Shown: one piece after another, positions 904-50,717 of the stretch
How positions within the stretch are numbered: the first letter of the stretch is position 1
How the letters are laid out: every line of letters begins with the position of its first letter
IMG/VR virus record: IMGVR_UViG_3300020390_000003
Span: 1-64,000 of that record
Source of the DNA: a virus
DNA: 64,000 bases
Direction: 5' to 3' (one strand)
Translations under genes and position numbers: made by a program
The notes under the pieces: generated by a model
Database searches by the model: none
The model's input: the letters and a program-made list of their open reading frames with translations, nothing else
Told to the model about the DNA's origin: nothing

Positions 904-2190
904 ATGGCAACAGTAAAACTACTGGTAAAAGGGAAGAAAAATCCTTCTACCTTATACATTCGATTTTTAAATGGACGGCAATTTGATAAGATTTGCAGTA
1001 CCAATTTAAGTGTTGATCCTGCGCAATGGGATAACAAAAAATCAAATTACAAAAACCTATCGTCGATCAAAGACCGCGTTAAGAAGCAAGCCAATTTTGA
1101 GAGGCTTAAAATTCACGTGCTCGAATCTTATAATGATGCCTATATGAATGGTGAAGTGATCGACAAAGATTGGCTTAACAATACCGTGAACACGTTTTTC
1201 AACCGACCCAAGCAAGAAACTAAGCTTGCTATTCAAGATCACTATGTGTATTTATCGGACTTTGCCGAATGGTGGATTGAAAACAAGGCGCCAAAATGGA
1301 AAACCGACAAGAATAAATTTCTGAGCAAGCGTGTTATTCAACAATATGAATCTAACATCAAGATTTGGAAAGAATTTGAAGGTAAGAAGAAGTACAAAAT
1401 CAAAGATGTGAGTAACGATGTGCTTGATGCTTTTACTTCCTTTATGGCAGATCAAAGTTATGCTGCAGCAACTACCAAAAGGCATTTATCACGTGCCAAA
1501 TTTTTTATTGCGCGCGCAGCTACCGAAGGCATCCAGATAGATCCTACCTACCAAGACCGGGTTTTTGTAAAGAAAGATGATGAAGATATTTCGCACCCAT
1601 ACCTTAATGAGCAGGAAATAGATGCTATTTACAAGCTAAACCTTTCGCACGACATCAGTCTCGACAACATAAGAGACAATGCAATCATTGGCTTGTGGAC
1701 CGGCCTACGAATTTCTGACTTCAATAAAAACCTTGATATAAGCAATATAGATGGCGATTATATTAAAATTCGTACCAAGAAAACCGGTACATGGGTTACA
1801 ATTCCGCTTCACCCTCAAGTAAAAGAAGTGCTTAATAAACGCCACGGAAACCTTCCTGTTAAGAGCAGCGACAAGCATTTCAACGAAAAAATTAAAGTGA
1901 TTTGTATGCTAGCCAATATTGATCAGAAGATTAAAGGCGGTATTACGATTGTAGATGAAGAAACCGGAGTGAAGCGAAAAGTTTATGATGTGTATAAAAA
2001 ATATAAGCTGGTAAGTTCGCATATTTGTAGACGTTCCTTTGCAACCAACTTATTTGGGAAGGTGCCTAATAGTGTAATACAAGCTATTGGCGGCTGGGCA
2101 AAAGAAGATATGATGCTTCATTACATCAAGAAAACTAAAACAGAATCGGCAGATCAACTTAAACAGTATTGGGATGAGAAATATAGGTAA
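904..2190 (+). CDS. int: Phage integrase (tyrosine recombinase, Bacteroidota Arm-DNA-binding/SAM-like type)
   Basis: TGLRISDF, KTG, SSHICRRSFATN and HY catalytic motifs; N-terminal arm-binding region. Confidence 0.95.
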   Translation: MATVKLLVKGKKNPSTLYIRFLNGRQFDKICSTNLSVDPAQWDNKKSNYKNLSSIKDRVKKQANFERLKIHVLESYNDAYMNGEVIDKDWLNNTVNTFFNRPKQETKLAIQDHYVYLSDFAEWWIENKAPKWKTDKNKFLSKRVIQQYESNIKIWKEFEGKKKYKIKDVSNDVLDAFTSFMADQSYAAATTKRHLSRAKFFIARAATEGIQIDPTYQDRVFVKKDDEDISHPYLNEQEIDAIYKLNLSHDISLDNIRDNAIIGLWTGLRISDFNKNLDISNIDGDYIKIRTKKTGTWVTIPLHPQVKEVLNKRHGNLPVKSSDKHFNEKIKVICMLANIDQKIKGGITIVDEETGVKRKVYDVYKKYKLVSSHICRRSFATNLFGKVPNSVIQAIGGWAKEDMMLHYIKKTKTESADQLKQYWDEKYR

Positions 2191-4870: not shown

Positions 4871-4969
4871 TTCCCGTGCTTTTAAAAATTAATGTAACCG
4901 GAGGGAGAACCCTCCACGCTTGCAGCTTAATACACTGTTTTAAGAGGCTGCAACCTCTAATTCAAATTT

Positions 4970-5450: not shown

Positions 5451-5506
5451 GTCTAAGACGGGCACCGCTGCGCCCGTTTCGCTCATCAAGAGCTCATCAG
5501 TTAGAC
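5451..5506 (-). ncRNA. Type I hammerhead ribozyme
   Basis: Minus strand: GUCUAA-CUGAUGA-GCUC uugau GAGC-GAA-ACGGGC gcagcggu GCCCGU-C-UUAGAC; full catalytic core, three perfect stems, GUC cleavage triplet. Confidence 0.92.
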
Positions 5507-8832: not shown

Positions 8833-8905
8833 ACTTCGGTAGCTCAGTTGGTAGAGCAGCGGTCTCCAAAACCGTAGGTCGTAGGTTCGAGTCCTTCCCG
8901 TTGTG
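8833..8905 (+). tRNA. trnW: tRNA-Trp(CCA), imperfect stems, no encoded CCA end
   Basis: TAGCTCAGTTGGTAGAGC D-arm, GCGGT-CTCCAAA-ACCGT anticodon arm, GGTTCGAGTCC T-arm. Confidence 0.8.
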
Positions 8906-9042
8906 CATACTTAGAGAGAGCGAAAGCGGATCATTGGCATAGATGCGATGAAGTAAGTAGCGCAGAGAAAAGATACCGGGAATTATGCGCCCGGCATCAC
9001 ATTAAACAATCGGGAAACATAACAACTTTTATTACTTAACAA

Positions 9043-44200: not shown

Positions 44201-44689
44201 ATGAAGCTTTTTTTATACTCAATCCTCAGTATATTTTTACTTAGCGCTTGCTCAAGCACAGATGATACCGCTATTGATCAAAAAACAGAAATAGAAGGTA
44301 ATAACGAATTGCAAGGGGTTTGGATTCTTGAAAATAAAATAAATAAAAATTCTAAAGCCGAAATAACTACTGATTGTGATTTACAACACGGTAAAATTAT
44401 TTTTACAGAAAGAGGTAGTGAAGCTGAAATAACAATAGGGTCTATAAATACAGTGGGTGATTGTGAAAAATCGATAACATCATTTAATCAAGTTTTTATT
44501 AATCCAAGGTTAAGGCTGAGGATATTGACTCCTTATGATGTAAATAAACCTGATTTAGAATACGAGTATGAAGCTTATTTTTTAGGAGATAAATTATCTA
44601 TAACTTTTATTGGAAAAGGAGAGATAGGATACCCTAAAGATTACATTACTGTTTCTGAACAAGAAACTTTCATATATAGAAAACAATAA
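44201..44689 (+). CDS. Lipoprotein (lipocalin-like), moron candidate
   Basis: Lipobox 'LLSAC', 'LQGVWIL'; followed by terminator. Confidence 0.7.
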   Translation: MKLFLYSILSIFLLSACSSTDDTAIDQKTEIEGNNELQGVWILENKINKNSKAEITTDCDLQHGKIIFTERGSEAEITIGSINTVGDCEKSITSFNQVFINPRLRLRILTPYDVNKPDLEYEYEAYFLGDKLSITFIGKGEIGYPKDYITVSEQETFIYRKQ

Positions 44690-44709
44690 AGGGGCCGAAG
44701 CCCCTATTT

Positions 44710-45324
44710 TTATAATCTTACTTGCGTAAATACCTGTTCTAATATTTGAGCAGGGTACATCTTGACTTTACCAAAACGAGGATCCGGTATTTCATCAGTT
44801 AGCAATCCTTTCTCTTTACATAATTTTGAAGCTGCACGTCCTAGACGGCTTGCTAGTTTAATGTTTACAGACACCCCGTTAAGATTGCCATATCCTACTA
44901 CTGTAAAATATTCCGGGCGTGTACTTGTTTTAGCTTTAAGTTCCCCTACTTCACGTCTTACTTCTGCTAAAGCCTCCTGATTTTCACGCATCATACGTAT
45001 GGATTGTTCCATAATATCAAGGGTGCTCATAGGTTTACTTTGTGCTTTTTCAAGTTCTTCCCATCGCAATATCAACTTTGCACGAGCTTCATCATTAAAC
45101 TTTGTAGCAATATATAAACTTTCGGTTTTTGAAAGTTGATACATTGGTTTTGCACGATTCTGAGAATCAATATAAGAGGTCAATCCAAATTTGGATTGAC
45201 CTAAATTAACCCAAGTTTCTTCCATCTTGCGAATATCACGCATTAAATGACCGTGATTTTTACCTGTTACTTCTGAAATTTGTAAACTGGTTATTTTACC
45301 GTTGTCTAAAACTAAATTTCTCAT
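44710..45324 (-). CDS. Rha-family antirepressor/regulator
   Basis: 'ITSLQISEVTGKNHGHLMRDIR', 'MYQLSKTESLYIATKFNDEARAKLILRWEELE'. Confidence 0.88.
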   Translation of the reverse strand: MRNLVLDNGKITSLQISEVTGKNHGHLMRDIRKMEETWVNLGQSKFGLTSYIDSQNRAKPMYQLSKTESLYIATKFNDEARAKLILRWEELEKAQSKPMSTLDIMEQSIRMMRENQEALAEVRREVGELKAKTSTRPEYFTVVGYGNLNGVSVNIKLASRLGRAASKLCKEKGLLTDEIPDPRFGKVKMYPAQILEQVFTQVRL

Positions 45325-45629
45325 AGCGCATTTGTATTAAGATTAGACAATGTAGTTTGGTGAGTCAACAACTCTTTTAAAGAAGCAATGAGCGTGATTT
45401 GTTGTTGTAGGCTATTGACAATTTGAGAAGCAGTTTTCGGCTTAAAACTGCTTTGTTTAGAAAGCACATAATTAACTAGTTGATGATGCGCTTTTAAATG
45501 ATCACTAATATCTGCTTGCTCATAAAATTCAGAAAGCTTGTCATGTAAAACTTGCGAATTGGCTTTAACAAATAATTGATTTGCAATTTGAGAATTGCGT
45601 TTACTGGTTTTCTTTTCTGTGTTTCGCAT
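45321..45629 (-). CDS. Hypothetical protein translationally coupled to Rha gene
   Basis: Start codon lies in an antisense target repeat. Confidence 0.6.
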   Translation of the reverse strand: MRNTEKKTSKRNSQIANQLFVKANSQVLHDKLSEFYEQADISDHLKAHHQLVNYVLSKQSSFKPKTASQIVNSLQQQITLIASLKELLTHQTTLSNLNTNAL

Positions 45630-45800
45630 TAGAAAAAAATTAAATTAAACAATAAGAGCGTAGCTCCCTCTAAGTTGCGAAACACACCAGTTGACGAGCA
45701 AATGGAATCGAGAGAGACTACGCCTGTATTGTAGCCTAAATATTCGGTAAAAAAAAGATTGAAATACTCAATCAACTGTATGTTTCGCATTTCAAACATA
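45617..45800 (-). ncRNA. c4-like antisense RNA / leader switch
   Basis: TGCGAAACA sense copies at the transcript 5' end and at the start codon; complementary copy in a hairpin loop; TAnnTTTG promoter at 45793-45800. Confidence 0.6.
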
Positions 45801-45890
45801 CAAAAGAAATTTTAATCTACACCATTAGTACTTAAAAAAAATAAATGTTACAGTATTGTTCAATCAAATAACGGTGTATTATAGTAAAGG

Positions 45891-46063
45891 TTAGATAGGT
45901 GGATTTACCTGAGCTAAGAATTGATAGCCTTTGGTTCAACCTCATTTTTAAAATGCACAAGAAACTTTTTCACACAAGCTGTGTAAGTCTTACGGGTGCT
46001 TGGTGAGTTGTATTTTAACTCACAATCTCTCGAATACTTAGTTAACCATTTTCGAGTATTCAT
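45891..46063 (-). pseudogene. Integron-type tyrosine integrase with large internal deletion
   Basis: N-terminal SAM-like 'LKYNSPSTRKTYTACVKKFLVHF' joined out of frame to a C-terminal remnant 'QFLAQVNPPI*'. Confidence 0.7.
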
Positions 46064-46099
46064 AATTGACGTGTTAATTTTATTGGTGTTAGTGATGGG

Positions 46100-46126
46100 T
46101 TTGCATATATAGTAGTTGTGTGCAAT
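46100..46126 (+). other. attI-like primary recombination site
   Basis: CATATATAGTA-GTTGTGTGC about 50 bp upstream of the integrase start, resembling an attC right arm; first GTT of the array. Confidence 0.6.
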
Positions 46127-46316
46127 AAAAAATTGATGCAGCCCACTTAACCGATATTCCGTTCGGGTTGCTTTCACACCTCGGTGGGAAGTATTAACGA
46201 GCTTTGGACACTCTTACTTTTTAAGGTTTCTAATACATTAGTGGTAATCCCGCTGGTTTCTGCATCAATTCAATTTTTTACTGTTCACTTCGCCATACAA
46301 CAACGTATAACAAAAA

Positions 46317-46463
46317 TTACTTACTATTCGTTTCTTGATGAAGTTTGTTTATCATATAGCTTATCAGCCCACTAAAGTTCTCAACTCCAAGCACCAAAAC
46401 AGATAAGTCATTACCCTTTTGGTGCATTTCGTCAGTTATTGTAATTGTTACTTTTTTAGTCAT
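46317..46463 (-). CDS. 48-aa ribbon-helix-helix-like protein (not in ORF track)
   Basis: MTKKVTITITDEMHQKGNDLSVLVLGVENFSGLISYMINKLHQETNSK; alternating beta strand then helices. Confidence 0.55.
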   Translation of the reverse strand: MTKKVTITITDEMHQKGNDLSVLVLGVENFSGLISYMINKLHQETNSK

Positions 46464-46464
46464 T

Positions 46465-46644
46465 TTAAAAAATTAGTTTAGCGTTTAATATTCCTTTTTC
46501 AGTAAAGTCAACTTTTTTTAATTCCTTATAATCACATTCAGGATAAAAAGAAAGTAAATCTTTTGCGCATTCTCTATTGCTAATAGTCCAACCTATTTGT
46601 TTAGTTATTAAATCAACTAATTTTTTAAAATTTTGTAAGTACAT
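46465..46644 (-). CDS. Small hypothetical protein inside the attC1 loop
   Basis: MYLQNF start; TAnnTTTG promoter at 46672-46679 with TTTG at 46699-46702. Confidence 0.55.
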   Translation of the reverse strand: MYLQNFKKLVDLITKQIGWTISNRECAKDLLSFYPECDYKELKKVDFTEKGILNAKLIF

Positions 46645-46794
46645 AATATCTGTTTTTAATTGTTTACTTGTCAAAGATAGTAAATACTTTATACATACCA
46701 AACAAATACAATAATTTTTTTCACGTAACTTTTGTTATACAATTCCGTTAGCCTACAATAGCCCATCGAGGGCACGCAATCAAACCAGTAAAAA

Positions 46795-46962
46795 TCAATT
46801 CTCCACCAAAGGTTTTAAGCAAAGTCTGGCTTCATTTGCATACTGCTTTAACGTATCAATTTGATAGTCTGTAATTGGTTTCTTTTGGTTGAGAATACGC
46901 CACATATAGGTATTGTAACAATGTGCATTATGTATTCTTTGTTCTTTCTCTGAAGCATCCAT
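46795..46962 (-). CDS. Cassette 2 gene, hypothetical protein
   Basis: MDASEKEQ...; enclosed by 16-bp inverted repeat 46745-46760 / 46995-47010. Confidence 0.55.
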   Translation of the reverse strand: MDASEKEQRIHNAHCYNTYMWRILNQKKPITDYQIDTLKQYANEARLCLKPLVEN

Positions 46963-47001
46963 AGTGATGATTTTTAATAGTTTAAAAGATTGCTTATTGT
47001 A

Positions 47002-47178
47002 GGCTAACGGGCGGTGTATGGCCACGCATCGGCAATCGTCGGTTAATATTTGTTCAATTCATTTATAATTCGATTGGCTACAGATAGCTAACAAAATGTA
47101 AAGCTTATAGATGCGTAGCTCAATCGGCTTTTACGTGTATGCTACGCATCCACAAGCCTTACACACCGCCCGTTGTGC
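47002..47178 (+). repeat. attC-like site 2 (nested, double-headed)
   Basis: Outer AACGGGCGGTGT/ACACCGCCCGTT; inner GCTAAC-aaaa-TGTAA..GATGCGTAGC/GCTACGCATC..TTACA. Confidence 0.8.
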
Positions 47179-47184
47179 ATAATA

Positions 47185-47604
47185 CTACAACTCGATTTGT
47201 AAATTGATATTACCAGACAAAACGCTTTCAATATCAATGGTGTATCTTAATTCGTGCCATATTGCAACCTTGTAGTTATTCCATTCCATATACTTTTTTT
47301 CTTTGTACTTGTCTTTAACCTCTTTAAGCCTTTCTCTTTTTGCTTTTGGTAGTTTAGAAGTGCAGAAGTATGCTAATCTCAAATCAACCTTATCCAAGGT
47401 TAAAGAATCTCGCCAATGAGATAGTTGTGCGTTTACATCACCTAATTCAAATTCTAATCCATCGGCAAAAAGTATATTATCTTTGTACTTTTTTAAAGTG
47501 GTTTGTTCAGCTATTTCCGTTATTTGCTTTTCAATAGCTTTAACAGTTGCGTTTGCACTAAAGCGTTTTTGTAGTGCTTCTATTAAAAATTTTTGTAATT
47601 CCAT
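47185..47604 (-). CDS. Cassette 3 gene, hypothetical protein
   Basis: 139-aa ORF exactly filling the space between GTTGTGCATAATAC and GTACTATGCACAAC. Confidence 0.75.
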   Translation of the reverse strand: MELQKFLIEALQKRFSANATVKAIEKQITEIAEQTTLKKYKDNILFADGLEFELGDVNAQLSHWRDSLTLDKVDLRLAYFCTSKLPKAKRERLKEVKDKYKEKKYMEWNNYKVAIWHELRYTIDIESVLSGNINLQIEL

Positions 47605-47614
47605 ACCGTACTAT

Positions 47615-47746
47615 GCACAACACTATATATAATTAATAGCCTGTGTTGTGCTTAATTTAAAGGCTATTAAGTGTTTAATAATTCAGTTTTAATTCGATAG
47701 GCAATCGCTTATTTACGTCTACTAATCATATATTTTAACGTTAGGA
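47615..47746 (+). repeat. attC-like site 3
   Basis: GCACAAC-acta-TATATAATTAATAG ... CTACTAATCATATA-ttttaac-GTTAGGA. Confidence 0.75.
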
Positions 47747-47770
47747 AAAATGTCCTAAAGGCACGTATTG

Positions 47771-47953
47771 CTACGCTTTTAAAATTTGGTCAACCTCATT
47801 GTCCGTTAATTGTCCGGTGTGTTCATAGCCTTGCTTTAACCCATATTCTAAAACCTTTTTAACTTGTAATTTAGTCATAGGCTTACCTTTATGAGTAAAG
47901 GCTTTATAACTTCTGTCTAATTGGGTTAAAGCACCCTCAATATCTGCATTCAT
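47771..47953 (-). CDS. Cassette 4 gene, hypothetical protein
   Basis: 60-aa ORF between attC3 and attC4. Confidence 0.6.
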   Translation of the reverse strand: MNADIEGALTQLDRSYKAFTHKGKPMTKLQVKKVLEYGLKQGYEHTGQLTDNEVDQILKA

Positions 47954-47989
47954 ATTATTAATTTTAAATTCCTTCGCTTGCTCGATTGC

Positions 47990-48160
47990 CTCTAACGGTC
48001 AGGGTATGTCTACACATCGACAATCAATATGTGTATTTGCTATTTAAAGACTTACGCTAAGTCAACTACATCTAACAAAATATATACTCCATAGATGCGT
48101 AGCCAATGCTTCTCCTGTGTAGGCTACGCCTCCACGAAGCATATACCCTGACCGTTAAAC
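47990..48160 (+). repeat. attC-like site 4 (nested, paralogous to site 2)
   Basis: Outer TAACGGTCAGGGTAT/ATACCCTGACCGTTA (15 bp perfect), ends GTTAAAC (GTTRRRY). Confidence 0.8.
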
Positions 48161-48256
48161 CGCCACTAAACTAATCTTTAATTTATACTAGATATAATTA
48201 TAATGCTATTAATTTTCTATTAAATTTGTATTTAGTATAGATTTTGATTATAGAAA

Positions 48257-49780
48257 ATGGCACAGCAAGGTAATTTTGCAGCATTGCAGCGTTTACAGCC
48301 TACTCAGGGCTTATCGCGTGATGTTCAGTATTGGAATAGTGATGCGGCAAGACGCCGAACTGAGAATCGTATTGATGAAAATATTCAGTATCAACGGGAG
48401 CAAGCGCGTAAAAAAGCACAATCAGAACTTTATGATAAATGGGTAAAACCCGGGCAAATGTATGATACGGGTAGTGCGTCTTTAAATGAAGTGCTTGCCC
48501 GTGGATTAAGCCAAGCGCGTGAACAATATTTGCCTAACCTTCAGATTTTAGAAAACCCCAATGCTTCGCAAGAAGAAAAGATCAAAGCACGCCTTCGCTT
48601 AGATAATCTTAATCAACTTCCTGAGCGTTTTAAAACCGTTACAGATAAATACACCGCAGAATGGAATGCCTATCAAGAAGCCAAGCAAAATGGCAATGCG
48701 TATGATCAGCCGGAACTTGATAAAGCATTTCAAGGTGGTTTTAAAAGCTATGAAATTGGCCTTGATGATATGGCTAATCCTGTTATTGCTTTTGTAGATA
48801 AGAATGGGGATGGCCAAAACGATTTGATAGGTGCACAAACCTTTGATCAAATTAGTCAAGGTATGCCGCTTTTTGACTGGCAGAAAAAATACAATATTGA
48901 TACGATGGCAGAAGATGTTGCCAAGCGTATAGGCACCACAGATAAGACCGAAGTAACTAATGGCGGTTTTGGTAGCATTCAAGAAAAATCTGCAAACCTT
49001 GATGGTATTCGCACAGCCGCACAAAAACTGTTTTATGATGCTAATGGTGGCGCTACCGAAGTAGCAAAAAGCGCGCTAAGAGAATCCGGATTGAATTATC
49101 AAAACCCCACTGCACAAGACTTGCTGCAGGTTGAAGATAGTTTTGTCAAACAAGCAATGTCTTATACTGATTATATGCGCAAGGAAACCCTTGATGCTAG
49201 TGGGCAAACATCGCGTATGCGTGAGAATCGACTTGCTAGTGGTGATAATCCTAATGCTGTGATCACCGAGCCGGTAAATCCTTCACAAGAAGTTTGGGGT
49301 GATGCTTATAGTACAATTGCGCCTAATGCAAAAAGTGTAGGTGTAAACGGCGTTAAGTTAAGCGCCATACGTGACGGAGAAAATACCATTACCGATGCCA
49401 ATGTGCAAAACGTGACTTATGATGCCAATGGCAATATGCTTGTAGATGTGGTTTATCAAGACATAAAAAGCTCTACGTATAAAGCGAAAGAAGCAAGCAT
49501 ACTAGAACAGCTCGCACAAGCGCAAAAATCTCAGGACGTATTAGAAGAAGCCGGGAATACCGAAGAAGCTAAAAAATTTGACGATAAGATACAAGGCTAT
49601 AATATGGAATTAAATCGACTTTCTACCGGAGCTCAAAACAAGCGTAAAGTAGTACGCATACCTAAAGAAGATGAAGCAAGTGTTGCACAACAACTAGGCG
49701 GTATTGAAGCGATAAAACAGCGCGTAGGAGTTCAAAATAACACTACCCAAACTAATGATCCACTAGGAATATTTGAATAA
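48257..49780 (+). CDS. Internal virion / ejection protein 2
   Basis: 507 aa, helical, between ejection genes, own late promoter. Confidence 0.65.
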   Translation: MAQQGNFAALQRLQPTQGLSRDVQYWNSDAARRRTENRIDENIQYQREQARKKAQSELYDKWVKPGQMYDTGSASLNEVLARGLSQAREQYLPNLQILENPNASQEEKIKARLRLDNLNQLPERFKTVTDKYTAEWNAYQEAKQNGNAYDQPELDKAFQGGFKSYEIGLDDMANPVIAFVDKNGDGQNDLIGAQTFDQISQGMPLFDWQKKYNIDTMAEDVAKRIGTTDKTEVTNGGFGSIQEKSANLDGIRTAAQKLFYDANGGATEVAKSALRESGLNYQNPTAQDLLQVEDSFVKQAMSYTDYMRKETLDASGQTSRMRENRLASGDNPNAVITEPVNPSQEVWGDAYSTIAPNAKSVGVNGVKLSAIRDGENTITDANVQNVTYDANGNMLVDVVYQDIKSSTYKAKEASILEQLAQAQKSQDVLEEAGNTEEAKKFDDKIQGYNMELNRLSTGAQNKRKVVRIPKEDEASVAQQLGGIEAIKQRVGVQNNTTQTNDPLGIFE

Positions 49781-50031: not shown

Positions 50032-50446
50032 TTTTTAATTCTCTTTTAAGTTTTATTATTAATCTTTTTGTTTCAATCATCCCTTTTGGAATTGAATTTT
50101 TATTCTTTCTCAATAAATTCGATATGTAATAGTCTGTTAAGTTTCTAGAATGAAATTTTGAAACGGTATCTTTATCTGATTTCAGTTTGATTTTAGTTCT
50201 GGTTTTAGAATATTGATCTTTCCATTTTTGACGATATTCTGAAATATCACATTCCAATTCTATACATCTTTTTTTTATTCTATTTAACTCTCCTGTTTTT
50301 ATGAGGCAAGATTTACAAAAGCTTCTGAAAGAATTATATATTTTCAATTCGCCTTTAGCGTTTTCTTGCTTTATCTTCTTTATATAAAAAAATTCTTTTG
50401 TCTTTGGATAAGACAGATTACACTTTCCACATTTTTTATATTCCAT
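50021..50446 (-). CDS. Zinc-finger protein (CxxC..CxxC)
   Basis: 'KKCGKC...EFF...SFCKSC'. Confidence 0.6.
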   Translation of the reverse strand: MEYKKCGKCNLSYPKTKEFFYIKKIKQENAKGELKIYNSFRSFCKSCLIKTGELNRIKKRCIELECDISEYRQKWKDQYSKTRTKIKLKSDKDTVSKFHSRNLTDYYISNLLRKNKNSIPKGMIETKRLIIKLKRELKNGS

Positions 50447-50717
50447 TTTTTAATGGGGTTAATGATTCAAGTACCTCGCTACGTTTATAATACACTCGCC
50501 TTCCTTGTCCGTAAGCCTTAAGCTTACCGCTTTTCGTACGTTTCCAAAGGGTTGACTTTGTAATCTGTAATAAATCACAAACCTCATCCCTAGTCATTAT
50601 CTGCTCAGCTGGCTTGTCTGAATTTTTGGGTTGATGCTGTATGCAAGCTTTTACACAATCAACTATGATTGCTTGGAATTCAGACATAGGCAATGAAATC
50701 AATACAATTTTTTCCAT
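50436..50717 (-). CDS. Excisionase-like HTH_17 protein
   Basis: 'IMTRDEVCDLLQITKSTLWKRTKSGKLKAYGQGRRVYYKRSEV'. Confidence 0.88.
   Translation of the reverse strand: MEKIVLISLPMSEFQAIIVDCVKACIQHQPKNSDKPAEQIMTRDEVCDLLQITKSTLWKRTKSGKLKAYGQGRRVYYKRSEVLESLTPLKNGI

Follow-up and report, generated by a model that had tools for sequence, protein, structure and literature searches.

An integron-like array of four small gene cassettes beside a recombinase remnant in a marine flavobacterial phage

Anatomy of the array

The window, a 64,000-nt stretch of the 72,457-base record of a marine flavobacterial phage (IMG/VR record IMGVR_UViG_3300020390_000003), carries at 45891-48175 a recombinase remnant, an attI-like site and four small gene cassettes joined at folding DNA hairpins, as seen on inspection of the sequence. 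All five GTT triplets that a preliminary description of this DNA had named (46115, 46747, 47172, 47740 and 48154) are present, and they coincide with the presumed cut positions of the cassettes (G|TT). By eye, GTT is invariably followed by A or G, and the three bases beyond that often depart from the RRY that completes the classical GTTRRRY box. Scanning for inverted repeats with arms of at least 13 nt, an exact 10-nt seed and a spacing of 60-1200 nt returned 34 in the 64 kb, 8 of which are tiled end to end within 2.1 kb (46123-48216); units closed by AAC..GTT alternate there with units closed by GTT..AAC, overlapping at the triplets. All five cassette ORFs lie on the minus strand, which is the folded strand, and point towards the recombinase, an arrangement shared by the ORFs of other phage arrays.

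Cassette 1 (46116-46746, minus strand) consists of a 180-nt non-coding stretch (46118-46297) and a stem-closed unit, in which a 16-bp stem (46305-46320 / 46725-46740, 15/16 matched) encloses two ORFs (46465-46701, 59 aa from the ATG at 46644; 46317-46463, 48 aa) and the motif TTTG-N19-TATCTTTG, with its -7 box at about 46672-46679, which we take to be a candidate promoter of Bacteroidota type. Cassette 2 (46747-47171, minus strand) joins an ORF (46795-46962; 55 aa from ATG, 76 aa from the GTG at 47025) to the hairpin element E1, and its arms (46745-46760 / 46995-47010) match perfectly over 16 nt. Within cassette 3 (47172-47739, minus strand), a 139-aa ORF (47185-47604) is flanked by arms at 47172-47185 and 47608-47621 that agree at 13 of 14 positions, the sole mismatch, at arm position 11, being G.T when read on the minus strand. 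Cassette 4 (47740-48153, minus strand) pairs a 60-aa ORF (47771-47953) with a second hairpin element, E2; its arm at 47980-47996 has lost its partner, of which GTTAG at 47740 alone remains. The self-complementary ends previously described for cassettes 2 and 3 are thus borne out, and the stem of cassette 1 adds a third pair. The two cassettes said to match more weakly differ in kind: the end pairing of cassette 4 is down to GTTAG/CTAAC, as that description implied, and cassette 1 is not a simple gene-plus-palindrome unit.

None of the five cassette ORFs matched a PHROG family at E <= 0.001 or a Pfam family at or above its curated cut-off, with one sub-threshold Pfam match (E 0.02). The 60-aa ORF of cassette 4 has a homologue (56% identity) in Flavobacterium, at a recombinase-containing locus (L052). 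The neighbours of the array had been called ejection genes, a label that their matches, to PHROGs annotated only 'virion structural protein', do not bear out; the flanking 507-aa gene has no relative in the viral contigs and none in the five E-bearing records.

The claim of a tyrosine-integrase remnant stands. It lies at 45891-46063 on the minus strand, and tblastn with the 266-aa recombinase of another genome (G002) aligned its codons 1-48 (46063->45920, with a stop at 45914) to residues 1-48 of the query at 50% identity (E 1e-12), identifying it as the start of a Xer-like tyrosine recombinase whose full relatives measure ~266 aa. The same search found nothing of the gene beyond codon 48 in the window, and the catalytic domain is wholly missing. 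Translation of another frame (45935->45891) gives ...LAQVNPPI*, a short and weak match to the family's C-termini that fits a putative internal deletion of the gene. The remnant resembles Pfam Phage_int_SAM_4 weakly and below the cut-off (E 7e-4). Because this 48-codon remnant is all that the phage keeps, its 72,457 bases containing no second small recombinase, the array would be frozen unless the enzyme were served in trans.

Directly upstream lies the attI-like platform (46064-46117, minus strand), with its AAC on the minus strand (GTT at 46115-46117 on the plus strand) 51 nt before the recombinase ATG, followed by the conserved leader TACTATATAT..ACCAATAAA..AACAC. When the upstream regions of 13 recombinase genes were aligned side by side, 12 showed an AAC 50-52 nt before the ATG, so that the attI-like site proposed earlier has the spacing seen in its relatives. 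The gene side of this AAC is conserved and the array side is unrelated between loci; homology between related loci begins at the platform AAC (L039/L040, L049/L050 and L050/L052).

Strand-specific folding of the hairpin elements

E1 (47004-47175) and E2 (47992-48158, the outer end of the array) are two homologous copies of a structured, attC-like element of 170 nt on the minus strand, with 79% column identity. E1 is closed by a 13-bp stem that starts with AAC and ends with GTT; it also has a 22-bp hairpin, P2, whose G.U/G.T pairs on the minus strand are conserved. Minimum free energies were -67.2 (minus) versus -63.2 (plus) kcal/mol for E1 (z -7.1) and -71.0 versus -55.7 kcal/mol for E2 (z -9.4), and shuffle tests on the pair gave z values from -6.7 to -9.4; both the G.U/G.T pairs and the lower energies favour the minus, ORF-sense strand. 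The window thus holds two strong attC-like sites and one weak one: the predicted folding of sites 2 and 4 (E1 and E2) far exceeds that of shuffled sequences, whereas site 3 (47619-47743) folds poorly (z -1.9, with 11 of 200 shuffles as good).

Comparison of eight copies of E demonstrates covariation, with 94.4% of cells paired, both sides changed in 18 of 38 pairs and none of 500 shuffles matching this. The closing stem AAC/GTT covaries across E1, E2 and six relatives, one of which reads AAT/ATT, a compensated change. E also contains a second, mutually exclusive helix. The interior of E is conserved far beyond the needs of a mere recombination site. These two features count against the explanation we favour below, as does the mRNA sense of the folded strand, since the same structures may act as RNA too. 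A promoter inside E, suggested by a TA..TTTG-like motif, was rejected, as the motif varies between copies.

Model R1, which scores E1 at 179.7 bits and E2 at 177.3 bits, found E in just one of 92 other loci (G003), plus two weak matches. Another type of hairpin, exemplified by locus L040, measures 110-127 nt, has single-base bulges and is more stable on the recombinase-sense strand. E is therefore one site family among several and not the universal site of the recombinase family. At gathering thresholds, Rfam matched only a tRNA and a pistol ribozyme across the whole window, both elsewhere in it, and at E <= 10 the segment 45500-48400 gave one chance-level match.

Recombinase relatives and cassette boundaries in other genomes

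Intact relatives keep the catalytic R-K-H-R-H-Y set, with R131, K156, H216, R219, H242 and Y251 invariant. Used as a query, the single recombinase of phage contig G001 found itself alone, and queries built from small alignments extended further. Aligned to Vibrio cholerae IntI4 (2a3v), a profile of five members falls into two pieces (10-176 with 9-179, and 209-263 with 260-314), leaving ~48 IntI4 residues without counterpart; between profile positions 176 and 209 there are ~32 residues versus ~80 in IntI4. The IntI-specific insertion is thus absent from the family. Its best solved relatives are archaeal XerA proteins (4a8e, E 7e-46; 5hxy), and NCBIfam integron-integrase models all score far below their cut-off (92 versus 265 bits). 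The preliminary description of an integron-like platform is supported as regards cassette exchange at G|TT beside a dedicated tyrosine recombinase; its term 'integron-like' is right, and 'integron' would be wrong.

The arrays are linked to this gene and to its conserved upstream site. Intact recombinase genes lie directly downstream of arrays in G001, G003 and L040. Across 80 bacterial loci around recombinase relatives, GTT-headed repeats form the commonest class (68 of 977), and 46 of these 68 have a single mismatch at arm position 11, which is G.T in 28 cases, upstream of the gene, and A.C in 12, downstream of it. Among 41 loci with a recombinase of at most 300 aa, 13 have such arrays upstream and none downstream. 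All five E-bearing bacterial genomes match the recombinase profile; since 106 of 151 sampled genomes of the bacterial family also match (E <= 1e-45), mostly through open frames of ~380 aa, this co-occurrence does not discriminate.

The cassettes themselves recur elsewhere, and E is carried by phages unrelated to one another. Cassette 2 is found in the unrelated phage contig G001 (locus L003), where both flanks turn unrelated at CC|GTT; positions 46744-46792 are 100% identical, 46938-47164 are 87% identical, and the ORF body between them has diverged. Over 47978-48156, E2 and its arm match a copy in provirus G004 at 98.3% identity; G004 has the partner arm too, around a different ORF, so that E2 is shared without its ORF. 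Together, these two cases indicate that homologous recombination within conserved flanks also shapes the arrays. The outer arm beside E predicted a partner beyond the adjacent ORF, and this partner was found in G002 (GTTGGTGGGGAATGA / TCATTCCCCACCAAC) and in G004. The arms of cassette 3 flank other genes in Polaribacter phage P12002S, and a Mesonia genome (L057) has them upstream of the recombinase.

Exact boundaries emerged from duplicated and dispersed copies. In G003, a provirus with an intact recombinase, a 440-nt cassette is duplicated with 100% identity; the ends read ..AA|C and ..AA|C versus ..AA|T, and the nucleotide that follows AA is paired with the next hairpin. A flavobacterial genome (G045) that holds only a long-type relative of the recombinase contains 10 scattered copies of a ~345-nt E cassette on 8 contigs, and in all five of the copies examined the cassette starts at ..AA|C and ends at ..CTAA|C, while the surrounding sequences are unrelated. 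The AA|C rule is not followed by every shared block: the unit at 46298-46750 of cassette 1, common to Tenacibaculum phage JQ (84-88%) and Polaribacter phage Danklef (73%), has sharp ends and stops at GTTGTT, short of the next AA|C. The rule of gene orientation is not general either, as the ORFs between E copies in bacterial genome G007 lie on the other strand. By BLAST, 81 of 128 ends of 64 internal blocks fell within ~4 nt of AAC/GTT versus 36% of random positions, a statistic in which the ends are fuzzy and many blocks are recombinase genes, and we relied on the individually inspected cases instead. Collectively, comparison with other loci supports the capture and shuffling proposed earlier, as site-specific exchange at G|TT, which reads AA|C on the strand that folds.

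Contigs of four sequencing runs on 44500-49500 showed no joint, circle, deletion or inversion, and at ~5-fold and fragmented coverage they are uninformative on excision. Loose contig ends from the same samples carry further variants of E, as well as different cassettes preceded by the leader seen here.

Interpretation and comparison with known systems

We consider it probable (roughly 0.8) that the locus is a relic array of four mobile cassettes belonging to an integron-like system of Bacteroidota and their phages, run by a ~266-aa Xer-like recombinase and not by IntI. That the substrates are single-stranded, where exactly the cut falls and which protein acts are points that we infer from this comparative picture. 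On the ORF-sense (minus) strand, a cassette would consist of a hairpin element and then a gene. The recombinase may act on this strand folded as single-stranded DNA, cleaving at the hairpin's 5' foot, between AA and C, and swapping strands either with a second hairpin or with the docking site that precedes its own gene by ~50 nt. The cut would fall midway in a long stem, whose inner half would be kept after insertion as the closing stem (AAC...GTT) and whose outer half would be split between the two ends of the gene (GTT...AAC), which would leave each cassette with self-complementary ends. With its recombinase gene reduced to 48 codons, the array studied here would change only if another element supplied the enzyme.

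Sites of the attC type have the same AAC/GTT triplets and the same G|TT boundary, and clusters of attC sites in phages have been published, one site of which IntI1 could recombine (Qi et al. 2023, PMC9892861). The array could accordingly be a classical integron fragment (CALIN) from a bacterial host, with attC sites served by a host IntI and the Xer-like remnant unrelated to them. We regard this as decidedly unlikely, since the gene that recurs beside the arrays is a small Xer-like recombinase that lacks the IntI insertion and has its own conserved site at a fixed distance, since the ORFs run the wrong way round for classical cassettes, and since the self-complementary ends span 13-19 nt and not 7. 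Furthermore, the IntegronFinder 2.0 paper (PMC9024848) reports a single complete integron for Bacteroidetes, in Salinibacter ruber. The stems might instead function in the RNA of a polycistronic early transcript, as processing sites, UTR switches or terminators, with the mosaic sharing owed to ordinary homologous or illegitimate recombination at conserved intergenic sequences, a route that has been proposed for the promoter-stem-loop cassettes of T4-type phages. The folded strand is indeed mRNA-sense in 8 of 8 phage and provirus copies, G.U pairs are conserved, the two exclusive helices of E are switch-like, a pistol ribozyme occurs in the same genome, and ORFs have been replaced between conserved flanks. 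Metatranscriptome contigs also cover 46100-46436 and 45664-45818, though they do not show the strand and do not exclude DNA as their source. Such an origin nevertheless appears unlikely given the precise AA|C ends of the duplicated cassette and of the chromosomal copies with unrelated flanks, the constant recombinase neighbour with its docking site, the lack of any matching Rfam family, and the position of the 5' arm of the stem at 46305-46320 / 46725-46740, upstream of the promoter-like motif that belongs to the unit itself.

Terminal inverted repeats, copies scattered through one bacterial genome and the recombinase's weak NCBIfam matches to tyrosine-type invertases (E 6e-10, far below cut-off) could also point to transposon-type repeats (MITEs or IS200/IS605-like), retron-like ncRNAs or invertase-flipped segments. 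These are very improbable: the arms covary between copies rather than keeping one sequence, no target duplication was seen, the duplications are direct and not inverted, and the arms differ from unit to unit, so that one sequence-specific invertase could not serve them all. Retron and IS200-like readings were rejected because neither a reverse transcriptase (PF00078) nor a Y1 transposase (PF01797) matched anywhere in the phage record, in searches whose controls did match.

Beyond the preferred reading of a relic, recombinase-run array, we lean slightly towards a broader proposal, taken as a whole: that these arrays represent a second, IntI-independent integron lineage, widespread in Bacteroidota chromosomes and in unrelated phages infecting Bacteroidota, in which a ~266-aa recombinase close to archaeal XerA captures [hairpin + gene] units 50 nt upstream of its gene. 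Cassettes would move between phages and could scatter to chromosomal AAC sites, the 170-nt E would be switchable, its two exclusive helices gating recombination or expression, and phages would use the platform to exchange small accessory genes, which in relatives are methyltransferases, probably to counter host defences. If true, a parallel Xer-like system would widen the known routes by which phages and hosts exchange accessory and anti-defence genes, would bear on the origin of integrons from Xer recombinases, and would make a compact pair of structure-specific recombinase and site available for testing. The window holds a decayed member, yet it yields the well-defined site family E and a candidate rule, that long complementarity of cassette ends reflects the split outer half of a hairpin stem, and it led to the exact duplication and dispersal events that would fix the crossover at AA|C.

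Integrons are the textbook gene-capture device of bacteria and are defined by IntI. The present arrays resemble them in having a Xer-clade tyrosine recombinase beside a cassette array with a docking site just upstream of its gene, and AAC...GTT-closed hairpins for which one strand, the one that is sense for the recombinase gene, gives the better fold. The boundary likewise falls at G|TT (AA|C), the first bases of a cassette are complementary to those before its own hairpin, cassettes without ORFs occur, and insertions are found at AAC/GTT sites outside the array. Near-identical hairpins beside unrelated genes recall sedentary chromosomal integrons with homogeneous attC sites. The arrays differ from integrons in their ~266-aa recombinase, which is without the IntI-specific insertion and has archaeal XerA as its nearest solved relatives, in ends that are self-complementary over 13-19 nt with a conserved G.T at position 11 versus a 7-nt R box, and in the 170-nt length and conserved, branched interior of E. 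In the phage arrays, the folded strand carries the ORFs, which run towards the recombinase, whereas classical ORFs lie on the top strand and run outward; and unlike promoterless integron cassettes, at least one unit here carries its own promoter-like motif.

Among elements that exploit XerCD and dif, folded single-stranded CTX phage DNA integrates at dif, which parallels the action proposed here of a Xer-type enzyme on a duplex made by folding one DNA strand. Those elements use the host chromosomal Xer, one dif site and a whole element, in contrast to a dedicated recombinase beside many cassettes. The pdif modules of Acinetobacter plasmids have sites that share one 28-bp consensus, and homologous recombination is the mechanism given for the shuffling of promoter-stem-loop (PeSL) cassettes in T4-type phages. 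Both resemble the present arrays as small gene modules bounded by inverted repeats in varied contexts, and PeSL cassettes also as accessory genes shuffled in phage hyperplastic regions; the arms described here, unlike either, vary from cassette to cassette, show covariation and have their breaks at a fixed trinucleotide.

Clusters of attC sites in phages are already known (Qi et al. 2023). We found no published account of a cassette system run by a small Xer-like recombinase. In the portion of Qi et al. (PMC9892861) available to us, 17 attC clusters are described in phages, one of them in Polaribacter phage P12002L, a site of which was recombined into attI1 by IntI1 in Escherichia coli. The sites are regarded there as parts of integrons that bacterial IntI1 recognises, and that portion makes no mention of a small Xer-like recombinase borne by phages, of a docking site belonging to it or of long self-complementary ends. 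The phage CALINs presented there resemble our array in belonging to marine Flavobacteriia phages, in their rows of small genes, often DNA methyltransferases, and in their attC-like sites without IntI. Polaribacter phage P12002S, sister to the CALIN-bearing P12002L, has the arms of cassette 3 of the window in common with it.

A recombinase remnant and its probable docking site

The viral record comprises 72,457 bases, is estimated to be 99% complete and is covered for 64 kb by the window, which has a GC content of about 0.37 and DNA matches to phages of marine Flavobacteriia (Polaribacter and Tenacibaculum). The cassette array is held by a minus-strand island that starts with a Rha-family gene (44710-45324), and the plus-strand genes on both sides of this island have their matches among PHROG families annotated 'virion structural protein'. 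A single gene of the record falls in PF00589; it encodes a 428-aa tyrosine integrase (904-2190, plus strand), which together with a tRNA-Trp (8833-8906, plus strand) forms the usual lysogeny module, distinct from the cassette recombinase. Elsewhere in the window, a minus-strand pistol ribozyme (4893-4958) scored 55.5 bits against an Rfam gathering score of 34.5, and Rfam at gathering thresholds gave no report for a hammerhead claimed at 5451-5506. A minus-strand 93-aa ORF amid the structural genes (50436-50717) is, by eye, a candidate small helix-turn-helix (excisionase-like) protein.

The array features listed in the preliminary description, among them a truncated recombinase gene, an attI-like GTT and four units with self-complementary ends, are all present in the sequence. 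Within an 87-codon frame (45914-46177), the 48 codons from the minus-strand ATG at 46063 align to residues 1-48 of the 266-aa recombinase of contig G002 (50% identity, E 1e-12), and the rest of that recombinase has no match elsewhere in the window. A tail in another frame (45935 to 45891, ending LAQVNPPI-stop) resembles the C-termini of intact relatives, a short match that would fit an internal deletion of the gene. The window copy of the array is dead. Intact relatives of the remnant (266-271 aa) carry the catalytic residues R, K, H, R, H and Y and, judged by sequence, are Xer-like recombinases; among solved structures, archaeal XerA proteins come closest (E 7e-46 and 3e-38) and V. cholerae IntI4 next. 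Alignment to IntI4 leaves out about 48 IntI residues, which we take to be the IntI-specific domain, and against all NCBIfam models the family scores far below the cut-offs.

Upon comparing the regions upstream of 13 recombinase genes, we found an AAC 50-52 nt before the ATG in 12 of the 13, with a conserved leader after this AAC and unrelated sequence before it. The window carries exactly this arrangement at 46064-46117, and the GTT at 46115 previously described as attI-like proved to be the AAC of the conserved site. Three pairs of related loci (L039/L040, L049/L050 and L050/L052) share gene and leader, with homology beginning at or beside the AAC and unrelated sequence upstream; the conserved AAC is thus placed where, on sequence, an attI-like insertion point would be expected and looks as such a point should.

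Between the remnant and a 102-aa ORF, we also observed a structured non-coding stretch (45605-45815, minus strand; z -3.6) with a 27-nt imperfect inverted repeat at its borders; Polaribacter phage Leef_1 matches this stretch at 72% identity. The stretch contains a TATTGTAGCCTAAA motif resembling the cassette 2 arm, and a metatranscriptome contig spans 45664-45818.

Tiled hairpins and genes

Eight of the 34 long-range inverted repeats of the window fall in 46123-48216, where they abut one another. Read on the minus strand, a hairpin (AAC-stem...stem-GTT) is followed by a gene enclosed in its own arms (GTT-arm...ORF...arm-AAC) and then by the next hairpin, with neighbouring stems having a triplet in common. 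If a cassette starts with the C of one AAC and ends with the AA of the following one, its circle would form one long unbroken stem in which outer arm, AAC and inner arm pair with inner arm, GTT and outer arm. Insertion would split this stem at its middle, which would be why the cassette ends are self-complementary. A prediction from this reading held: judging by the bases beside the attC-like hairpin element E in contig G002 and provirus G004, each should have a partner arm on the far side of the neighbouring ORF, and each does. The same architecture extends for kilobases in G002, G004, a further contig (G001) and a further provirus (G003), and locus L040 has five GTT...AAC gene modules with hairpins between them. 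These hairpins contain single-base bulges and measure 108-121 nt, or 114-127 nt once the AAC and GTT triplets they share are included; the L040 array stops 50 nt before an intact recombinase gene.

Two hairpins of the window, E1 (47004-47175) and E2 (47992-48158), represent the same 170-nt element, E. Both are far more stable than shuffled sequence (z down to -9.4), with folding energies on the minus versus plus strand of -67.2 versus -63.2 kcal/mol for E1 and -71.0 versus -55.7 kcal/mol for E2; three A.C mismatches in the long hairpin on the plus strand become G.U/G.T pairs on the minus strand. Searching viral contigs by pattern gave four further copies and one chance match, and with a covariance model the set rose to eight copies spread over six records, one of which is the cultured Tenacibaculum phage JQ. 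Across these eight, pairing extends to 94.4% of cells and both sides have changed in 18 of 38 pairs, values matched by none of 500 shuffles; slid registers pair at 31-44%. One copy replaces AAC...GTT with AAT...ATT, a compensated change. No Rfam family matches the element or the array region. A second helix (alignment A5 columns 64-73 with 154-163; about 47020-47031 and 47110-47120 in E1) excludes the long hairpin and has support of its own: 93.7% of its cells pair, both sides have changed in 5 of its 10 pairs, and other registers reach 15-39%. It may be a conformational switch.

Evidence of cassette movement, and the wider family

Cassette 2 (46744-47171) recurs in G001, where the flanks turn unrelated at CC|GTT on both sides. 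In G003, which has an intact recombinase, a 440-nt cassette is present twice at 100% identity; it starts at AA|C in both copies and ends at AA|C in one and AA|T in the other, and its final base pairs inside the stem of the next hairpin. These differing ends put the exchange point directly after AA. Between E2 and the G004 copy, identity is 98.3%, with homology beginning at the AAC. Among 151 genomes of one flavobacterial family, 5 contain E, and one of them, G045, has it ten times, on eight contigs. We examined five of these copies (L130, L134, L136, L138 and L140), which are ORF-less cassettes of about 345 nt, comprising E and a GTT...AAC module. Each spans ..AA|C to ..CTAA|C and is set in unrelated flanks that show no target duplication. 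In G045 the cassette has thus spread to AAC sites that belong to no array; the recombinase relative in this assembly is of the long type only. Unit 1, a part of cassette 1 (46298-46750) common to phages JQ and Danklef, ends in GTTGTT, not AA|C. ORF bodies are swapped between conserved flanks, indicating that homologous exchange also acts on the array.

Scanning one genome per species yielded 474 recombinase relatives, of which the best 80 loci were analysed; relatives in these 80 are mostly from Bacteroidota, with some from Clostridia. GTT-headed inverted repeats were the commonest of 64 trinucleotide classes in the best 80 of 474 loci (68 of 977), and 46 of the 68 carry a single mismatch at arm position 11. 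This mismatch is G.T on the recombinase-sense strand, upstream of the gene, in 28 of the 46 and A.C, downstream of the gene, in 12; the cassette 3 arms of the window obey the same rule, with G.T at position 11 on the minus strand. In the same best 80 of 474, recombinases of at most 300 aa are accompanied by upstream G.T arrays at 13 of 41 loci and by downstream A.C arrays at none of the 41, whereas for longer recombinases the corresponding figures are 2 and 9 of 33, the 9 downstream arrays being of opposite strand polarity.

The longer relative (350-600 aa with an N-terminal extension; loci L072-L128) is found in most genomes of the family sample, with 106 of 151 matching at E <= 1e-45. Locus L151 (G007:C13:54000-67000) has a 272-aa recombinase preceded by four copies of E, and here the intervening ORFs are not on the folded strand but on the other one, so gene orientation in the recombinase family is not fixed.

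Class of element and relation to integrons

We consider it probable, at roughly 80%, that the array is integron-like and served by an enzyme other than IntI. The integron-like reading of the preliminary description is supported to this extent, but the enzyme is not IntI and the window copy is dead. The array is not a strict-sense integron, since it lacks the IntI hallmark and its genes are oriented the other way round. A retron or an IS200-type element is rejected as well, since neither a reverse transcriptase nor a Y1 transposase is present in the record, while the controls matched. The array structures belong to the sense strand and may have a role as RNA as well, yet an explanation in terms of RNA only fails on the DNA-level events, namely duplication, dispersal and a shared cassette. 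A single-strand mechanism with the exact cut set out here is less secure, about an even bet.

The nearest work, Qi et al. 2023 (PMC9892861), describes, in the portion consulted, CALINs in 17 phages, Polaribacter phage P12002L among them, and recombination of one P12002L site by IntI1; that portion makes no mention of a phage-borne Xer-like recombinase or docking site. The consulted part of IntegronFinder 2.0 (PMC9024848) lists one complete integron in Bacteroidetes, and that of Ghaly et al. 2021 (PMC8618304) names Bacteroidota among phyla with integrons, giving no detail. In the literature searched on integrons and attC sites of phages, Flavobacteria and Bacteroidota, we found no description of a cassette system run by such a recombinase. 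Four things are new from the window: the E site family, whose interior resembles a switch; the rule of a G.T at arm position 11; precise duplication and dispersal events, by which the crossover point is fixed; and the division by enzyme length, in which short enzymes go with upstream arrays and long ones with downstream arrays. Near recombinase relatives in Clostridia and other Bacteroidota, L089, L113 (Alkaliphilus peptidifermentans) and L096/L107/L112 hold arrays of uniform 125-130-nt repeats with ..AAC and GTT.. as their bounds, similar in this to the homogeneous attC sites that chromosomal integrons carry. Integron cassettes follow the split-stem logic proposed here for the array, with an outer stem of 6 nt as opposed to 13-19 nt.
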